Shown here in pieces: positions 29,278-37,229 of a DNA stretch of 64,000 nt (position 1 is its first letter; the number at the start of each line of letters is the position of its first letter). The position numbers and the translations under genes are program-made. Source of the DNA: Candidatus Latescibacterota bacterium (GTDB lineage: Bacteria > Latescibacterota > UBA2968 > UBA8231); the NCBI GenBank assembly GCA_965248355.1, contig OZ252098.1, positions 1,024,001-1,088,000 of the forward strand, given 5' to 3'. The notes beneath the pieces are model-generated. The model did no database searches, was not told the DNA's origin, and was given only the letters and a program-made list of their open reading frames with translations.

Positions 29278-30606
29278 GTGAGGGACGAGGTTTGGGCCCC
29301 GGATGGTGAGCCCACGGTCCGAATCTCCCATATCGCGGAGAGGGAGGGCGAGCGCGTTCAGTTGCACGGCTGGATCTACAACAGCCGCTCCAGCGGCAAG
29401 CTCCACTTCCTTCAGGTCCGTGACGGTACCGGCATCATCCAGTGCGTCCTGTTCCAGGGCGACGTGACGCCGGAAGTGTTCGAACGCTGCCATCAACTGC
29501 CTCAGGAGACGGCTGTGATCGTACGGGGCCGGGTGCGCTCCGACCCGCGTTCCCCCCTCGGTTTCGAACTGGGGGTGGCGGATCTGGAGGTCGTGCATCG
29601 GTCGGAGGAGTATCCCATCTCACCCAAGGAGCACGGCGTCGCCTTCCTGATGGAGCATCGCCATCTGTGGCTGCGCTCGCTGCGCCCACACGCCGTGCTG
29701 CAGGTGCGCGCCGTGGTGATCGATGCCTGCCGGGAGTACATGCGCCAGGAGGGCTTCCTGCTGATCGACGCCCCGGTGCTCACACCCGCGGCCTGCGAGG
29801 GAACGACGACGCTCTTCGAGACCGACTACTTCGGCGAGACGGCCTACCTGACCCAGAGCGGCCAGCTCTACATGGAGGCCGCGGCCATGGCCTTTGGAAA
29901 GGTCTATTGCTTCGGGCCCACCTTCCGCGCCGAGAAGTCGAAGACCCGGCGCCACCTCACCGAGTTCTGGATGATCGAGCCGGAGATGGCCTACTGCGAT
30001 CTGGCGGGCGGGATGGAGGTCGCGGAGGGATTGGTGACCCACGTGGTTCGGAGGGTCCTTGCGGACTGCCGCGGTGACCTGGAGGCGCTGGAACGCGATC
30101 CGTCGCCCCTGGAAGAGGTCGCCGGCGGGCAGCCCTTCCCGCGTATCTCCTATGATGAGGCCATCGAGATCCTTCGCGACGAGGGCAGCGACCTGCCTTG
30201 GGGGAGCGATCTCGGCGGCGACGACGAGACCCTGCTGTCGCGTCGGTTCGACCGGCCCGTACTCGTCCATCGATACCCGGCGCAGGTGAAGGCCTTCTAC
30301 ATGAAGACCGACCCCGAGGACGGGCGGCTGGCCCTGTGCGTGGACATGCTGGCCCCGGAGGGATACGGAGAGATCGTCGGGGGCGGCCAGCGGGAGGACG
30401 ACCTGCAGGTGATCGAAGCCCGCCTCGCCGAGCACGGCCTGCCCGCCGAGGCCTTCGCCTGGTACCTCGATCTGAGGCGGTACGGCTCCGTTCCGCACGC
30501 CGGATTCGGCATGGGGATCGAGCGCGTCGTGGCCTGGCTGTGCGGCACCCGCCATGTGCGCGAGACGATTCCCTTTCCCAGGACCCTGCAGAGGCTCTAC
30601 CCCTGA
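29278..30606 (+). CDS. asnS: Asparagine--tRNA ligase
   Basis: [36 protein letters not shown]. Confidence 0.95.
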
Positions 30607-30608
30607 CC

Positions 30609-33554
30609 ATGGCAGAGACCGCGGCCCGTCACCCCCCCCCGGGGGGAGCGTACGACTTCCAGCGCATCGAGAAGCGCTGGCGTGACTACTGGTTGGCGGA
30701 AGGCACGTATCGGACCGTTGCACCCGGAGAAGAGGGCTACGACCCGCAGAAGCCGAGGTGCTACATCCTCGACATGTTCCCCTATCCCAGTGGCGAAGGC
30801 CTGCACATCGGCCATCCCAAGGGCTACATCGCCTCCGATATCTACAGCCGCTTCAAGCGCATGGCTGGATACAACGTCCTGCATCCGATGGGGTTCGACA
30901 GTTTCGGGCTGCCTGCCGAGCAGTATGCCATCGAGCACAACGTCCATCCCGCCGTGTCCACCGATCAATGCATCGATCGCATGCGCGCCCAGTTGCAGTA
31001 CCTCGGCCTCGGCTACGACTGGGACCGGGAGATCTCCACATCCCACGAGGACTACTACCGCTGGACCCAGTGGATCTTCCTGCAGCTCTTCGACAGCTGG
31101 TACGATCCGGACCGGGAGTGGCACGACAGCTCGGGGAGGTCGATCCGGGGCCGAGCCCGGCCGATCCCCGAGCTGGTGCAGTCCTTTGAGGACGGAACCC
31201 GGAGCCTCACGGTCCAGGACCGCATATCCCTGCTGGAGAGGCGGGCCGGCGGCTCGGTCGAGGCGGGCTGGCAGGAACTGACGGAGGCCGAGCGTCAGGC
31301 GGTACTGAGCAACTACCGCGTGGCCTATCAGAAGGAGGTCACCGTCAACTGGTGCCCCGGGCTCGGCACGGTTCTGGCCAACGAGGAAGTCACCGCCGAG
31401 GGACGCAGCGAGATCGGCGATCATCCCGTGCACAAGCGCCCGCTGAAGCAGTGGATGCTGCGCATCACCGCCTTCGCCGATCGGCTCCTGGAGGATCTCG
31501 ATGCCGAGGCCCTGCCCGACGGCCGCGGCGCCACCTATGCCCTGGACTGGCCGGCGCCGATCAAGCTCATGCAGCGCAACTGGATCGGCCGCAGCGAGGG
31601 CGCCGAGGTGCGGTTCGACGTCGATGGCTCCCACCGGGCCCGATCCACCCTGGAGGTGTTCACCACCCGGCCCGATACCCTCTTCGGGGCCACCTTCATG
31701 GTGGTGGCCCCCCAGCATCCCCTGTTGTCGGAGGCAGGCCGGGTACCGGACACCTGGCCCCTGGAGACGCCCGAGACATGGAAGGGAGAGCCGGAAGCCC
31801 CGTCCCCCAGGGAAGCCGTCCGTCGACACGCGGCCTGGGCGGAGCGATCCGCCTTCTCCGGCTCCGGACAGGATCAGGACAAGAGCGGTGTCTTCACCGG
31901 GATCTTCGCGCGACGCCCGATGGATGGGGAACGCATCCCCATCTTCACCTCCGACTACGTGAGCATGGAGTACGGCACCGGAGCGATCATGGCCGTCCCC
32001 GCCCACGACGAACGGGACCACGCCTTCGCCCTCAAGTACGGCATCCCCGTCATCCAGGTCGTCGAGCCCCCCCCGGAGGCCGCCGGGGAGTTTCCCTACG
32101 CGGGCGACGGAAGGTCGATCAACTCCCCCGGCGCAAGGGCAGGCGATCCGGCGGGGGAGGCCCATCCCTTCTGCATTTCGGGCTTGCCTACGGCCGAGGC
32201 CAAGTCCCGCATCGTCGAGGCGCTGGAACAGGCAGGCCTGGGCCGCAGCGCTGTCAGCTACCGCCTTCGCGACTGGGTCTTTTCGCGTCAGCGCTATTGG
32301 GGGGAACCCTTCCCCTTGGCGACGCACCCCGATGGGTACACCGTGGCCACCGGCCTGCCCGTGCGGCTGCCGGAGCGCGAGGATTTCAGGCCCACCACCT
32401 CGGAGGATCCTGACACCCCGCTGAAGCCGCCTCTCGGACGAGCCGGACGGGAATGGACCCAGGTGGAGGTGGACGGCCAGACCTGTGACCGCGAGCTCAA
32501 CGTCATGCCCCAATGGGCGGGCTCTTGCTGGTACTTCCTGCGGTTCATCGATCCCCACAACGACCGGGCCTTCTGCGACCCGGACAAGGAGAGGAGCTTC
32601 ATGCCCGTCGATCTCTACATCGGCGGGGCCGAGCACGCCGTGCTGCACCTGCTGTACGCCAGGTTCTGGCACAAGGCGCTCTTCGACCTGGGGCACGTGA
32701 GCTCTCCGGAGCCCTTCAAGAAGCAGTTCAGTCAGGGCATGGTCACCGCCGACGCCTTCACCGACCACCGCGGGGTGTACATCGACATCCGCCAGGTGGC
32801 CTTCGACGCCAACGGCGAACCCGTTCACGCCCAGACAGGGCAGAGGCTGACCCGATTCCGCGGCAAGATGGGAAAACGCTACAAGAACGGCCCGCCCCCG
32901 GAAGAGGTGGGGGAGGAGTACGGCGTCGACACACTGCGATTGTACGAGATGTACATGGGACCCCTGGAGCAGAGCGCCCCCTGGAGCATGGAGGGCATCC
33001 GCGGCATGCAGCGGGTCCTGCAGCGCATCTGGAGAAACCTGGTGGCCCAGGACGGGTCGGCCAAGATCGACGACGGCCCCGCACCCGACGGGCTGCGCAG
33101 GCTTCTGCATCGGACCACTGAGAGGATTACCTCCGACCTGGAGGCTCTCCGCTTCAATACCGCCATTGCCGCCCTGATCGAGCTCAACAACGAGCTGGTC
33201 CCGCTCGAGAGAGTGCCGGCGGAGGTGGCCCGGACGCTCATTCTCCTCCTGCACCCCCTGGCCCCACATCTCGGCGAGGAGCTCTGGGAGCGCTGCGGCT
33301 TTGGATCCGGGGATCTCTCCGCCCAGCCCTGGCCCGATTTCGACGAAGCCCTGACCAGGCGCGACACAATCGTTCTACCCGTGCAGGTCAACGGCAAAGT
33401 CCGGGCAACCATAGAGGTGCCGGCCACGACCTCCGAGGAGGCGGTGCGCCAGCAGGTGCTCGGCCTGGAGAATATCCAGAGACACCTGCCGGATTCGGGA
33501 CAGATAAAGAGACTGATCCTCGTCCCTGGGAGAATCGTGAACATCGTGGTCTGA
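30609..33554 (+). CDS. leuS: Leucine--tRNA ligase
   Basis: MFPYPSG, HIGH, FTTRPDT, SRQRYWG, KMGKR (KMSKS variant). Confidence 0.97.
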   Translation: MAETAARHPPPGGAYDFQRIEKRWRDYWLAEGTYRTVAPGEEGYDPQKPRCYILDMFPYPSGEGLHIGHPKGYIASDIYSRFKRMAGYNVLHPMGFDSFGLPAEQYAIEHNVHPAVSTDQCIDRMRAQLQYLGLGYDWDREISTSHEDYYRWTQWIFLQLFDSWYDPDREWHDSSGRSIRGRARPIPELVQSFEDGTRSLTVQDRISLLERRAGGSVEAGWQELTEAERQAVLSNYRVAYQKEVTVNWCPGLGTVLANEEVTAEGRSEIGDHPVHKRPLKQWMLRITAFADRLLEDLDAEALPDGRGATYALDWPAPIKLMQRNWIGRSEGAEVRFDVDGSHRARSTLEVFTTRPDTLFGATFMVVAPQHPLLSEAGRVPDTWPLETPETWKGEPEAPSPREAVRRHAAWAERSAFSGSGQDQDKSGVFTGIFARRPMDGERIPIFTSDYVSMEYGTGAIMAVPAHDERDHAFALKYGIPVIQVVEPPPEAAGEFPYAGDGRSINSPGARAGDPAGEAHPFCISGLPTAEAKSRIVEALEQAGLGRSAVSYRLRDWVFSRQRYWGEPFPLATHPDGYTVATGLPVRLPEREDFRPTTSEDPDTPLKPPLGRAGREWTQVEVDGQTCDRELNVMPQWAGSCWYFLRFIDPHNDRAFCDPDKERSFMPVDLYIGGAEHAVLHLLYARFWHKALFDLGHVSSPEPFKKQFSQGMVTADAFTDHRGVYIDIRQVAFDANGEPVHAQTGQRLTRFRGKMGKRYKNGPPPEEVGEEYGVDTLRLYEMYMGPLEQSAPWSMEGIRGMQRVLQRIWRNLVAQDGSAKIDDGPAPDGLRRLLHRTTERITSDLEALRFNTAIAALIELNNELVPLERVPAEVARTLILLLHPLAPHLGEELWERCGFGSGDLSAQPWPDFDEALTRRDTIVLPVQVNGKVRATIEVPATTSEEAVRQQVLGLENIQRHLPDSGQIKRLILVPGRIVNIVV

Positions 33555-33604
33555 CGAATGGTCCAAGAGCGGCAACCCCAAGTGAGGGACAGGACATATC
33601 CTTA

Positions 33605-33632
33605 GATACGCATAATTTTGTTTATGTATACA
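33605..33632 (+). other. dif-like XerCD site A
   Basis: GATACGCATAA-TTTTGT-TTATGTATACA vs E. coli dif GGTGCGCATAA-TGTATA-TTATGTTAAAT (9/11 and 7/11 arm matches). Confidence 0.7.
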
Positions 33633-33657
33633 CCGCAGCAAGGGCTCGCGGGTGGAT

Positions 33658-33685
33658 TATTTACATAATGCCGATTATATGGCTA
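33658..33685 (-). other. dif-like XerCD site B
   Basis: Minus strand TAGCCATATAA-TCGGCA-TTATGTAAATA; good XerD-like arm, weak XerC-like arm. Confidence 0.65.
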
Positions 33686-33709
33686 TCGATGGAAGACCTC
33701 GTCCTCCAT

Positions 33710-33738
33710 TTGACAAGTGGAAGGTTACTTGGTATAAT
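33710..33738 (+). promoter_or_regulatory. Consensus sigma70 promoter of the recombinase gene
   Basis: Exact TTGACA (33710-15), 17 nt, TATAAT (33733-38), plus extended -10 TG. Confidence 0.85.
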
Positions 33739-33757
33739 ATCCCTTATAGAAAGTAAC
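33724..33757. repeat. loxP-like 34-bp recombination site (13-8-13)
   Basis: GTTACTTGGTATA-ATATCCCT-TATAGAAAGTAAC; arms 11/13 inverted; 10/13 and 9/13 identical to loxP arms. Confidence 0.75.
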
Positions 33758-33782
33758 GACCTCGTAACAAGGGCCTGAGAGC

Positions 33783-34742
33783 ATGCCCTCCAGTCGCAGC
33801 CCACAGACGGCCCCGGCAACCAGCAATCGTACCGACCTCCAGGTTCCCGTCTCCCAGGGCCTGGCCGATCTCTTCAGCGCTTCCATTTCCAGGAACACGG
33901 CCAAGGCCTACGAGGCCGCCCTTGTCCGCCTCGACGCCCGACTTGTCGGCGCGGCTCTTACAGATCACGCCTTCGCCGAATATCTCACCGAACTCCACCA
34001 CGAAGGCCGGGCCCCGAGCTCCATCGCCCTCGTCGTCTCCGCCGTGAAGTTCCGGGCCAAGCTCCAGGGCGTGTCGTCGCCGGTCGGTCCCATCACCAGC
34101 CGTGCCCTCGCCGGCATCCGGCGGGCCGGGAAATACCGCGGTCAGGGGCAGGTGCAAGGTGTCGGGTTTGCAGCCGCCGACGCTGCGGCCGCGGTCGCCG
34201 GCAGCGACGGCCAGAACCTCGCCGGCCTCCGCGACGCCGCATTGATCGCCATCGCCTCCGATGGCCTGTTGCGGGTCTCCGAAATCGCCGCTATCCAGGC
34301 CGCTGATGTAGAGCAAGCGGACGACGGCAGCGGCCGACTGACGATTCGCAGCTCAAAGACCGACCAGGAAGGGGCCGGCCAAGTGCTCTATCTGGGCGCC
34401 TCCACAATGCGCCGGGTGACGGCCTGGACCACCGCCGCCGGAATCACCTCGGGACCGCTGTTCGTCAGGGTCCGAAAGAACGGCCGCCTCGGCGACAAGG
34501 CCTTGTCCGCCGTCTCGGTCCGGCAGATCATCCGCACCCGATGCAAAGCCGCGGGCGTGGAGGGGCGCCTCTCAGGCCACTCCCTGAGGGTGGGAGGAGC
34601 CCAGTCCCTGGCGGCCGGGGGCGCCTCTGTCGTGGAAATGCAGCAGGCCGGCCGCTGGCAGTCGCCGAACATGCCCGGACACTATGCCAAAGGTCAGTTG
34701 GCCGCCCGGGGCGCTGTCGCTCGCATCCGCTACGGCCAGTAA
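33783..34742 (+). CDS. Cre-like tyrosine recombinase
   Basis: N-terminal SAM-like domain; catalytic R (LLRVSEI), K (SKTDQ), HSLR, W (GRWQS), Y (GHYAK). Confidence 0.92.
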   Translation: MPSSRSPQTAPATSNRTDLQVPVSQGLADLFSASISRNTAKAYEAALVRLDARLVGAALTDHAFAEYLTELHHEGRAPSSIALVVSAVKFRAKLQGVSSPVGPITSRALAGIRRAGKYRGQGQVQGVGFAAADAAAAVAGSDGQNLAGLRDAALIAIASDGLLRVSEIAAIQAADVEQADDGSGRLTIRSSKTDQEGAGQVLYLGASTMRRVTAWTTAAGITSGPLFVRVRKNGRLGDKALSAVSVRQIIRTRCKAAGVEGRLSGHSLRVGGAQSLAAGGASVVEMQQAGRWQSPNMPGHYAKGQLAARGAVARIRYGQ

Positions 34743-34797
34743 GCCCTTCGGGCACTGGGACCAGGGGCCAGCCCTGTTCAGGCTCCCTTCAATCTGA

Positions 34798-34825
34798 AAC
34801 AAACATAATCTATATTATGCGCCTA
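34798..34825 (-). other. dif-like XerCD site C
   Basis: Minus strand TAGGCGCATAA-TATAGA-TTATGTTTGTT (8/11 and 8/11 arm matches to E. coli dif). Confidence 0.75.
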
Positions 34826-34854
34826 CTAAAGGCTGGCCGAAGTGGATCGGGCCG

Positions 34855-36648
<1,794 letters not shown>

Positions 36649-36650
36649 GC

Positions 36651-37229
36651 TCAGAGCTCCGGCGTGATCTCCGAGACCCGGCGCTCGAACTCGGCCTGGG
36701 TCAGGCGCCCTTCCTCCAGATCCTGCCGGGCCCGGGCCAGACGCTCCCGTGGACTGCCCTCTCTCCGGTGCCTGCGGGCCTGCTGCACCAGATTGTACAG
36801 GCCGAAGAGGAGGAGGCCGCCCACGACGGCCAGCCATGCGAGCTCCCGCAGCCAGCGCCGATTGTCGGCCCCCATGACCACGGTCACACCGGAGGTGCGC
36901 CAACGAGCGAGCGCCTCGAGCACCAGGGCCCCTTCGGGCATGGGCAGGATGACATCCTTCGCGAGGACCCGGTGGCCCGCCTGCTCGATGACCACCGGTT
37001 GCCGCAGCCGTCCGATCAGCCTTCCCTCGGCCACCTCGACCCGCTCGACCATGTCCTGGGACACCAACTCCTCCATCCGTTCCAGGCCGATGCGGGTCTC
37101 GGCCGGAGCCAGCAGGCTGAGCAGGAGAAGGAGGCCGAGCAGGCCCGACGCAAGGAGCAGGGCCAGCGAGGTAGGCGACAAGGTGGGCGTCGGCTCGGGG
37201 CTTCCCCCCGCCTCAGGGGCTGTTGTCAC
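36651..37229 (-). CDS. Membrane protein resembling the FtsH N-terminal TM-periplasmic-TM module, with a short C-terminal SHOCT-like helix
   Basis: Two TM helices flanking a VERVEV-containing domain; ends LEEGRLTQAEFERR; coupled GTGA start. Confidence 0.55.
   Translation of the reverse strand: MTTAPEAGGSPEPTPTLSPTSLALLLASGLLGLLLLLSLLAPAETRIGLERMEELVSQDMVERVEVAEGRLIGRLRQPVVIEQAGHRVLAKDVILPMPEGALVLEALARWRTSGVTVVMGADNRRWLRELAWLAVVGGLLLFGLYNLVQQARRHRREGSPRERLARARQDLEEGRLTQAEFERRVSEITPEL

Follow-up and report, generated by a model that had tools for sequence, protein, structure and literature searches.

A candidate Cre/lox-type module in a replication-terminus slot of a Latescibacterota chromosome

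A recombinase gene and a lox-like palindrome between leuS and mutL

We analyzed a 64,000-nucleotide (nt) stretch of the chromosome of a Candidatus Latescibacterota bacterium (assembly GCA_965248355.1, contig OZ252098.1, positions 1,024,001 to 1,088,000; hereafter, the window, with positions counted from its first letter), focusing on a Cre-like tyrosine recombinase gene and a lox-like palindrome next to it. The gene (33783..34742, plus strand), delineated from its open reading frame (ORF), Pfam, NCBIfam and PDB searches and a structure model, encodes a 319-amino acid (aa) protein, P0001. It is preceded, with a gap of 25 nt before the ATG at 33783, by the 34-bp lox-like site GTTACTTGGTATA-ATATCCCT-TATAGAAAGTAAC (33724..33757, plus strand), which was recognized from the sequence, a repeat search and pattern scans. 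The genome containing the window, G000, is a single contig of 5,503,661 bases and is 95.7% complete. The pair occupies a slot on which two genes converge, leuS on the left (30198..33554, plus strand, from the predicted start codon; Pfam domains tRNA-synt_1_2, tRNA-synt_1 and Anticodon_1) and mutL on the right (34855..36903, minus strand; MutL_C, DNA_mis_repair and HATPase_c_3).

In the 13-8-13 format, the arms of the lox-like site are complementary at 11 of 13 positions and enclose an asymmetric 8-bp spacer, ATATCCCT; the repeat search yielded an alternative, 14-6-14 reading, with 14-nt arms that are 86% complementary and 6 nt between them. A first-pass annotation, made from the letters alone, had described a palindrome of loxP geometry ending 25 nt before a 319-aa ORF, and this is what the sequence contains; a hand count against the lox site as read from the P1 record, ATAACTTCGTATA-GCATACAT-TATACGAAGTTAT, also agrees with the 10 of 13 and 9 of 13 arm positions that it gave as common to this site and loxP. 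With up to 3 mismatches allowed, the lox-like pattern occurs once in the window, compared to 0 occurrences in 100 shuffles, and no second full site or half-site (the latter searched at up to 2 mismatches) was found in the window. The genome-wide scan that the annotation had proposed likewise detected no second copy in 5.5 Mb at up to 3 mismatches, such that the site is single-copy in G000. The annotation's view of the lone site as the trace of a former episome or a landing pad is not supported.

The genome contains 408 palindromes of the 13-8-13 format with at least 11 of 13 positions paired; at this density, an intergenic stretch of 229 nt, as here, would be expected to contain 0.017 of them. 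An A+T content of 60% or more is reached by only 4 of these palindromes. The intergenic DNA at the locus contains 45-47% G+C, against ~68% in the surroundings. Like dif-type sites, the lox-like site is single-copy, non-coding, low in G+C and palindromic. Of the listed positions at which contigs of other samples differ from the window, a single one, 33724 G>T, lies in it, and an Rfam search of the region gave no match.

P0001 as a predicted Cre-type recombinase

The catalytic residues R164, K192, H266, R269, W292 and Y301 of P0001 align to R173, K201, H289, R292, W315 and Y324 of Cre, the catalytic set listed in PMC10250229. An alignment of 20 sequences shows no variation at R164, K192, R269, W292 and Y301, whereas H266 is conserved in 90% or more of the rows; S191-K192-T193-D194 is invariant as well, and Q195 nearly so. 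Both comparisons agree with the intact R-K-HxxR-W-Y set, including the Cre-type Trp, and with the SKTDQ motif, which had been read from the sequence in the first pass. In a phmmer search of PDB sequences, all of the 17 best matches, which had E values from 2e-19 to 8e-17 and covered residues 65-315 of P0001, were to Cre or to Tre, an engineered variant of it. The best of them (E 2.2e-19) aligns P0001 residues 66-315 with Cre residues 73-338; the first non-Cre match had an E of 0.009. An AlphaFold model built from 20 family members has a predicted local distance difference test score (pLDDT) of 71, that is, medium confidence, and a Foldseek search with this model placed Cre at all ranks from 1 to 30 (best E 8e-13), followed by XerA (1.5e-6), XerD, IntI, XerH and lambda Int.

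Pfam detects only the general Phage_integrase domain in P0001. With the NCBIfam models, P0001 scores 33.3 bits for XerC (cut-off, 335), 35.8 bits for XerD (cut-off, 330) and 15.5 bits for the invertase (cut-off, 222). The expectation that the protein would be of the Cre type rather than XerC/D is thus borne out by PDB, Foldseek and NCBIfam alike, and, judging from sequence and modelled fold, P0001 is an intact Cre-family tyrosine recombinase, with both domains most similar to those of Cre and not to those of Xer proteins or lambda Int. The identity to P1 Cre is 33.9% over residues 149-315 (tblastn) and 25% over ~295 Foldseek columns. No phage or plasmid record is 60% or more identical to P0001, the top-ranked match, from a plasmid, reaching 35.8%; in these collections, the pair differs from the described systems, in line with the first-pass proposal of a candidate new system.

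A site embedded in a promoter

The lox-like site overlaps a sigma-70-type promoter, TTGACA-17-TATAAT with a TG extension (33710..33738, plus strand), which agrees with the consensus at 12 of 12 positions. TTGACA begins at 33710 and TATAAT occupies 33733-33738, with a 17-nt spacer between them; the left arm of the site fills this spacer, and the -10 hexamer consists of the last four bases of the left arm and the first two bases of the site's spacer. The same layout is present in five other loci of the family (L005, L007, L149, L029 and L057). Transcription is predicted to start near the beginning of the right arm, leaving the left arm outside the mRNA, and given this promoter position, the palindrome would act as DNA and not as an RNA hairpin. 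Because the site spans the promoter spacer and the -10 box, recombinase bound there would be expected to block RNA polymerase and so keep its own level low; the position of the site inside a consensus promoter suggests autorepression. One RNA-library contig extends across 33300-34351, which cannot be taken to show transcription.

Displacement of a Xer-like gene from the slot

In relatives from the same genus, DNA homology to the window stops at the leuS stop codon and restarts at 34803-34855 (in genome G006 at 34803, at a dif-like site described below). Between these points, the relatives carry a non-homologous insert of ~1.3-1.4 kb that encodes, on the opposite strand, P0122, a 317-aa Xer-like recombinase (L093 2583-3536, minus strand; loci L130-L143). 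P0122 scores 114-116 bits with the XerC/XerD models, far under their cut-offs, and contains a Phage_integrase domain and a SAM-like N-terminal domain according to Pfam. It is present in 16 of the 18 relatives from family f1, and the two genomes without a match are only 76% and 81% complete; at E up to 1e-40, it was found neither in G000 nor in 12 genomes of the sister families f2 and f3. The context is nearly constant: leuS (12 loci) and/or mutL (11 loci) flank 13 of the 14 P0122 loci, the remaining one having neither gene within reach. In 8 of the 14 loci, P0122 is preceded by a palindrome, ACTAACGATAA-N6-TTATCGTTAGT, with conserved arms and a variable centre. P0122 and this palindrome are candidates for a single-recombinase dimer-resolution module of this uncultured family.

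A scan of the phylum detected relatives of P0001 (E up to 1e-70) in 16 of 168 genomes. All 3 genomes of genus g17, also in family f1, show the order leuS, Cre-like gene, mutL, and these are the only slot loci among the 29 checked; no P0122 orthologue was found in G000 or in the two g17 genomes tested (G031 and G032). Thus, in G000 and in g17, the Cre-like gene has displaced P0122 and its palindrome in situ.

The g17 slot sites are TAAACTTCGTATAA-TTGTAG-TTAACAAAACTAAT, TAAACTTTGTATAA-TTACAG-TTAACAAAAGTAAT and ATTAGTTTGTATAA-TTCACG-TTATCAAAACTAAT. In all three, the arms are kept, the right arm TTA[AT]CAAAA[CG]TAAT especially so, and the six central bases differ; all three are located inside a TTGxxx-17/18-TATAAT promoter. 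The proposal that the palindrome is the cognate site of the recombinase gains from this conservation of arms with a varying centre in the 3 orthologues, as well as from the upstream sites in 13 of 80 family loci considered below. Between g17 and G000, the Cre-like proteins are 63-66% identical, compared to 66-70% for LeuS and 51-56% for MutL.

A quick tree places the slot copies of g17 as the sister group of the P0001 clade, a weakly supported grouping (80 in the Shimodaira-Hasegawa-like approximate likelihood ratio test), and the P0001 clade includes a non-slot island copy, L004; in a larger quick tree, the g17 slot copies group with other Latescibacterota copies. An approximately unbiased test (rejection p 7e-6) is uninformative on one versus two origins of the slot copies, with rows of unknown context having been grouped with slot copies. 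In one relative with P0122 in the slot (G007), an 84-residue fragment that is 67% identical to the P0001 C-terminus (G007:C1:77407-77658) is probably a decayed copy.

Position at the replication terminus and dif-like motifs

The cumulative GC skew of G000 has its maximum at 1,074,876 and its minimum at 3,752,336, and the lox-like site, at 1,057,724 of 5,503,661, lies 17 kb from the maximum, which corresponds to the replication terminus. For comparison, in proteobacteria, the median distance between dif and the skew maximum is 7.3 kb and the third quartile is 21 kb (PMC2731167). In two more genera, sampled skew turns from positive to negative across the slot, with either occupant: skew-positive windows number 18 of 20 on one side versus 1 of 20 on the other in G119, with a Cre-like occupant (Mann-Whitney p 3e-7), and 16 of 20 versus 2 of 20 in G017, with P0122 (p 6e-6). 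When G000 was sampled in the same way, 15 of 20 versus 4 of 20 windows were positive on the two sides of the locus, and two control places showed no flip.

The gene is flanked by two dif-like sites, each with an exact CATAA-N6-TTATG motif: site 1 on the leuS side, GATACGCATAA-TTTTGT-TTATGTATACA (33605..33632, plus strand), and site 2 on the mutL side, TAGGCGCATAA-TATAGA-TTATGTTTGTT (34798..34825, minus strand). These motifs (at 33611 and 34804), in inverse orientation, are the only two exact ones in the 5.5-Mb genome. Both conform to the 11-6-11 dif format tabulated in PMC2731167, where the E. coli dif is given, in the table of Carnoy and Roten, as GGTGCGCATAATGTATATTATGTTAAAT. The relaxed motif xATAA-N6-TTATx occurs five times in the genome, with four occurrences within the 1.2 kb of the locus. 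Outside the short core, the dif-like arms bear no likeness to the lox-like arms. A dif-like site with the same centre, TATAGA, adjoins mutL in G006, where two inverse core motifs surround P0122 in the same geometry as in G000, and several P0122 loci keep the mutL-side dif-like site; on the leuS side, no dif-like motif was found in the g17 slot copies.

A third, weaker core motif, CATAA-TGCCGA-TTATA (33664..33679, no strand assigned), separates dif-like site 1 from the promoter; it has outer arms of low palindromic symmetry and is overlapped by a weak minus-strand promoter-like match (33685-33656). The sole relaxed motif outside the locus, TATAA-TAGAGG-TTATA at G000:C1:5079772, has arms unlike the lox-like ones.

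Elsewhere in the family, two one-mismatch dif matches (L012 and L020) do not look dif-like, and one-mismatch motifs number 3 near the gene ends in 79.6 kb versus 10 in 443 kb elsewhere. A dif-like motif beside the gene is not a family trait.

Other recombinases and contigs from other samples

Three genes of G000 belong to PF00589: the P0001 gene, a XerD-type gene at 321 kb that scores 300 bits with NCBIfam PRK00283, above the cut-off, and a XerC-like gene adjoining topA (G000:C1:2237240-2238547; L126 441-1748; counterparts in L128 and L129). The C-terminal region of the XerC-like protein, as read by eye (GQLRAACARH...LLDRR...), does not contain the usual His, His and Tyr, and this degenerate sequence is 82% conserved in G006 and G007, so that the protein is possibly a Xer paralogue that is conserved but without catalytic activity. 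If so, the slot recombinase could be of greater importance.

Sequencing runs of other samples were examined as contigs, which cannot reveal rare forms. No inversion or excision joint touching the sites was found in these contigs. Two joints are listed. One is a 343-nt skip inside the P0001 gene, on a 26-letter side. The other is from run X19, where an RNA-library contig from a ~94% identical strain has 55 letters in place of 34742-34834 (93 nt, including dif-like site 2).

The recombinase family and its sites

A protein search with P0001 produced 1290 matches at E up to 0.001 among 8000 scored candidates, mostly unnamed proteins of 305-340 aa, and 13 of these proteins (P0002-P0014) are 77-97% identical to P0001. 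In species-representative genomes, a relative is encoded in 419 of 606 candidate stretches, and 80 loci were kept, from Latescibacterota, Poribacteria, Acidobacteriota, Thermodesulfobacteriota/Dadabacteria, Gammaproteobacteria, Binatia, Chloroflexota and others. Several copies per genome are common, a quick tree sorts the copies largely by phylum, and several record titles carry names of sponge-associated lineages. Metagenome contigs of the Joint Genome Institute (JGI) contain 18 family loci, the best being 58-65% identical over long matches, and no member of the P0001 clade is among these 18; viral contigs yielded 4 relatives at only 29-34% identity. A search of the open-access literature found no paper on this Cre-like family.

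We then applied a strict site filter (8-bp spacer, arms ending or starting in TA at the spacer, at least 9 of 13 positions paired, up to 420 nt upstream of the gene). Upstream 13-8-13 sites were detected in 13 of the 80 loci, and many loci show none; this amounts to 13 sites per 33.5 kb upstream versus 22 per 489 kb elsewhere, an ~8.6-fold difference in density, with several of the "elsewhere" sites located just past the 420-nt limit. Furthermore, the arms covary between clades (L029, ATTACTTGCGATA/TATCACAAGTAAT; L057, ATTACTTATGATA/TATCATAAGTAAT; L028 and L030, TTTATTTCCGATA/TATCGGAAATAAA). Similar palindromes thus do occur upstream of homologues, the check that the first pass had proposed. 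The inner arms in the window are GGTATA/TATAGA, and many family sites instead have CCGATA/TATCGG.

In two multi-copy genomes, ~400-500 bp upstream of the gene are common to the paralogous copies, and within this region, a piece of ~150-190 bp is inverted between paralogues (L031 2559-2746 versus L062 2820-2633; L033 versus L034; and others). Within the L031/L062 piece, there is a TTGACA promoter, and the bounds of the piece are formed by CCGATA-ATCGCTAT-TATCGG and CTGATA-ATAGCGAT-TATCGG, whose spacers, ATCGCTAT and ATAGCGAT, are reverse complements of each other. Overall, in L031-L037, L056 and L062, a promoter segment lies between two inverted sites just upstream of the gene. The inverted promoter segments show that such palindromes are crossover sites in the family, though not at the locus in the window. 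In L031-type loci, there is also a terminator-like hairpin between the invertible segment and the recombinase gene, and a divergent 590-aa ORF upstream of the L031 promoter, which by eye resembled a surface protein, had no Pfam hit, so that this assignment was dropped.

In an Acidobacteriota clade, the best site, GCTTCCGATA-ACNNNAAT-TATCGGAAGTAGA, is located 0.5-1.1 kb downstream of the gene (L006 4380-4413, L010 5001-5034, L013 4967-5000, L017 4473-4506 and L009 2552-2585) and a weaker look-alike, TTCTGATA-ACTGGGCT-TAACGGATG, just upstream of it; the downstream site is not the end of an element because homology between copies runs past it. L063, titled Nitrosopumilus, and L053, from Poribacteria, have the same arms, TTAGCGTTATATA/TATACAACGCTAT, with different spacers, and their proteins fall in one clade, which reflects either cross-domain transfer or a mis-binned contig. 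Upstream of the L004 recombinase gene, which is encoded outside the slot in G006, we saw only a G+C-rich hairpin and no lox-like palindrome; the AlpA-family gene preceding this recombinase (2578-2784) encodes 68 aa (PF05930, E 2.6e-14).

A proposed dimer-resolution module and the competing explanations

The explanation that we favor, with a probability of about 0.45, is that a self-repressing Cre/lox-type module took over chromosome-dimer resolution in this lineage. The 34-bp palindrome would be P0001's own lox-type binding and crossover site, serving as operator and crossover site at once, and gene and site together would form a ~1.2-kb terminus module that has leuS and mutL as its neighbors and a conserved dif-like site next to it. 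Because the lox-like site is unique in the genome, its only recombination partner would be the same site on the sister chromosome or on an incoming circle; given this restriction, the most likely job of the module would be dimer resolution at the chromosome terminus, a task that Cre/loxP performs on the P1 plasmid and XerS/difSL-type single modules perform on chromosomes. The broader formulation, in which two or more lineages of a single Latescibacterota family have exchanged the Xer-like recombinase of the family core, along with its site, for a natural dimer resolution system of the Cre/lox type in the same slot, we put forward with somewhat more reserve.

Several observations weigh against this explanation. 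No recombination product was seen, and contigs from three other studies show the same arrangement only. The Cre-like family is mainly mobile or switch-like: 26 of the 29 loci checked in the phylum lie outside the slot, in what is a multi-copy and mostly non-terminal family, and L004, which at 72% identity is the closest relative whose context is known, is preceded by an AlpA-family gene, an arrangement typical of integrative islands. In G000, the Cre-like module coexists with a XerD-type gene and a dif site of canonical appearance, so that dimers may be resolved without any need for the slot recombinase. Only 1 of the 80 family loci (L007) has a clean dif-like motif close to the gene, and this locus is itself a slot copy, such that the placement of the module between dif-like sites does not recur in other contexts. 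The structure model of P0001 is of medium confidence only, with pLDDT below 50 for residues 275-319, and the role of P0122 is itself inferred.

Four other explanations were considered. The module could be a selfish cassette that landed in a dif hot spot, perhaps via exchange between the inverse dif-like sites, a route proposed for Acinetobacter dif modules, with no host function, the loss of P0122 being collateral; we regard this as unlikely but as the strongest of the competitors. The only two exact CATAA-N6-TTATG motifs of the genome flank the gene inversely, as similar motifs do P0122 in G006, and homology to G006 restarts right at a dif-like site; inverse pdif sites bounding modules have been described for Acinetobacter plasmids; and the family has a scattered distribution (in 2 of 9 relatives from the genus and in 16 of 168 phylum genomes, often in several copies), with the island copy L004 inside the P0001 clade. 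Yet the g17 copies are without the leuS-side dif-like motif, which, with 1 of 80 loci having such a motif, argues that this is not the usual way of moving; all 3 g17 genomes keep the arrangement, with 63-66% identity of the Cre-like protein to P0001 beside 66-70% for LeuS and 51-56% for MutL, which fits long residence in the slot; and losing a gene kept in 16 of 18 relatives without a functional replacement would be costly, if that gene matters. Slightly less probable, in our estimate, is that the palindrome is an autoregulatory operator only, the true crossover sites being elsewhere (the flanking dif-like sites or incoming DNA) or the gene being idle. A site overlapping the -10 box and the predicted transcription start, in a layout repeated in L029, L057, L005, L007 and L149 and with no second copy in the genome, is equally what a pure operator would look like, a point that also counts against the dimer-resolution explanation, and the clustering here of 4 of the 5 xATAA-N6-TTATx cores makes other nearby sites candidates. 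What speaks for a crossover site is that palindromes of the same type, with reverse-complement spacers, bound inverted segments elsewhere in the family and are crossover sites there, that the arms are kept in g17 while 6-8 central bases vary, the pattern of a recombination site, and that the dif-like arms are unlike the lox-like arms outside the short core.

The remaining two explanations carry little weight. That the locus is the remnant of an invertible-promoter switch, with one site lost and the promoter locked toward the recombinase gene, would accord with the promoter segments between inverted sites in L031-L037, L056 and L062, and with the weak third core motif 60 nt upstream, at 33664; it is nevertheless very unlikely, given that the window contains no other half-site within 2 mismatches, that the upstream neighbor is the end of leuS on the same strand, leaving no divergent gene to switch, and that the single-site layout is common to the g17 orthologues, L029 and L057. 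Least credible of all is a chance palindrome in an A+T-rich promoter region beside an ordinary integrase: the low local G+C content (45-47% versus ~68%) does favor A+T-rich repeats, but the expected number of such palindromes is only 0.017, the orthologues have kept the arms, and upstream sites are enriched 8.6-fold over the 80 loci.

Comparison with known systems and implications

Cre/loxP of P1 is the nearest known counterpart of the proposed module. Cre is the closest solved protein by both sequence and fold and has the same catalytic hexad with Trp; both sites are of the 13-8-13 format and agree at 10 of 13 positions in one arm and 9 of 13 in the other; and in each case there is one site per replicon, beside the gene. 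The natural role of Cre includes plasmid dimer resolution. The arrangements differ in that the P1 lox site is ~420 bp upstream of cre, with three annotated promoters between, whereas the site in the window is inside a single promoter, 25 nt from the ATG, and on a chromosome, at the terminus.

SCre/SloxP-type pairs have been predicted from a Cre homologue and a nearby 13-8-13 palindrome with no more than 2 arm mismatches (PMC3082901, PMC10250229), and the same logic of prediction links our pair with SCre/SloxP (Shewanella sp. ANA-3 plasmid 1), VCre, Dre, Vika, Nigri, Panto and the pairs of PMC10250229. The tested site SloxM1, CTCGTGTCCGATA-ACTGTAAT-TATCGGACACGAG, has the inner arm CCGATA/TATCGG that is common to many sites of the present family (PMC3082901), unlike the window site with GGTATA/TATAGA, and the identity of P0001 to plasmid and phage proteins is below 60%, with 35.8% for the top-ranked match. 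In NC_008573.1, the SCre gene was not found within 2 kb of the SloxP match. The window site and the lineage names are absent from one supplementary file of PMC10250229, a file that possibly does not include the list of ~500 pairs. What is new compared to the known Cre-type pairs is that the site is embedded in the promoter, that the pair resides at the terminus of a chromosome and that it alternates with a Xer-like module.

Like XerS/difSL, XerH/difH and XerL/dif, the pair consists of a gene beside a single A+T-rich, palindromic, non-coding site at the terminus (PMC5357621, PMC1914069, 10.1101/2021.09.12.459815); xerS adjoins difSL "as a single module" (PMC5357621; also PMC1914069), and the divergent single recombinase XerL was found only recently (10.1101/2021.09.12.459815). 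Unlike these systems, P0001 does not belong to the Xer family, and a dif-like site and a XerD-type gene coexist with it. In the dif modules and integrative mobile elements exploiting Xer (IMEX) of Acinetobacter, a gene likewise lies between two inverse XerC/XerD-type sites, beside the chromosomal dif; those elements, however, carry cargo and use the XerCD of the host, whereas the module in the window has its own recombinase and site, and the flanking pair is present in G000 and G006 but was not seen in the g17 orthologues. FimB/FimE-type promoter switches resemble the family members whose paralogues flank a promoter with two inverted sites and are found in both orientations; the window, by contrast, has a single site with nothing to invert, and the invertase model scores 15.5 bits against a cut-off of 222.

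From the standpoint of applications, this is a compact candidate Cre/lox-type pair that is less than 36% identical to anything in the phage and plasmid collections and, hence, a reasonable candidate for an orthogonal recombinase, with orthologues that supply natural site variants for use as a tool. The promoter-embedded site also hints at a simple form of autoregulation that synthetic circuits could borrow. The value as a tool alone is incremental, given that ~500 Cre-type pairs have been predicted and roughly 50% of those tested were active (PMC10250229).

The greater interest is biological. In E. coli, the function of dif can be taken over by Cre/loxP at the terminus (PMC2731167); the same source stated in 2009 that there was "no evidence" for such dimer resolution systems of the Cre/lox type in nature. 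Cre-type and Xer-type modules that alternate in one terminus slot represent a natural experiment on the long-standing question of whether Cre/lox-like systems can, and do, act as chromosome dimer resolvases in nature. If the proposed takeover is true, nature would have done what was achieved in the laboratory when loxP was put in place of dif. The locus also draws attention to the unstudied Xer-like P0122, which, together with its site, is likely to be the resident system across an entire uncultured family.

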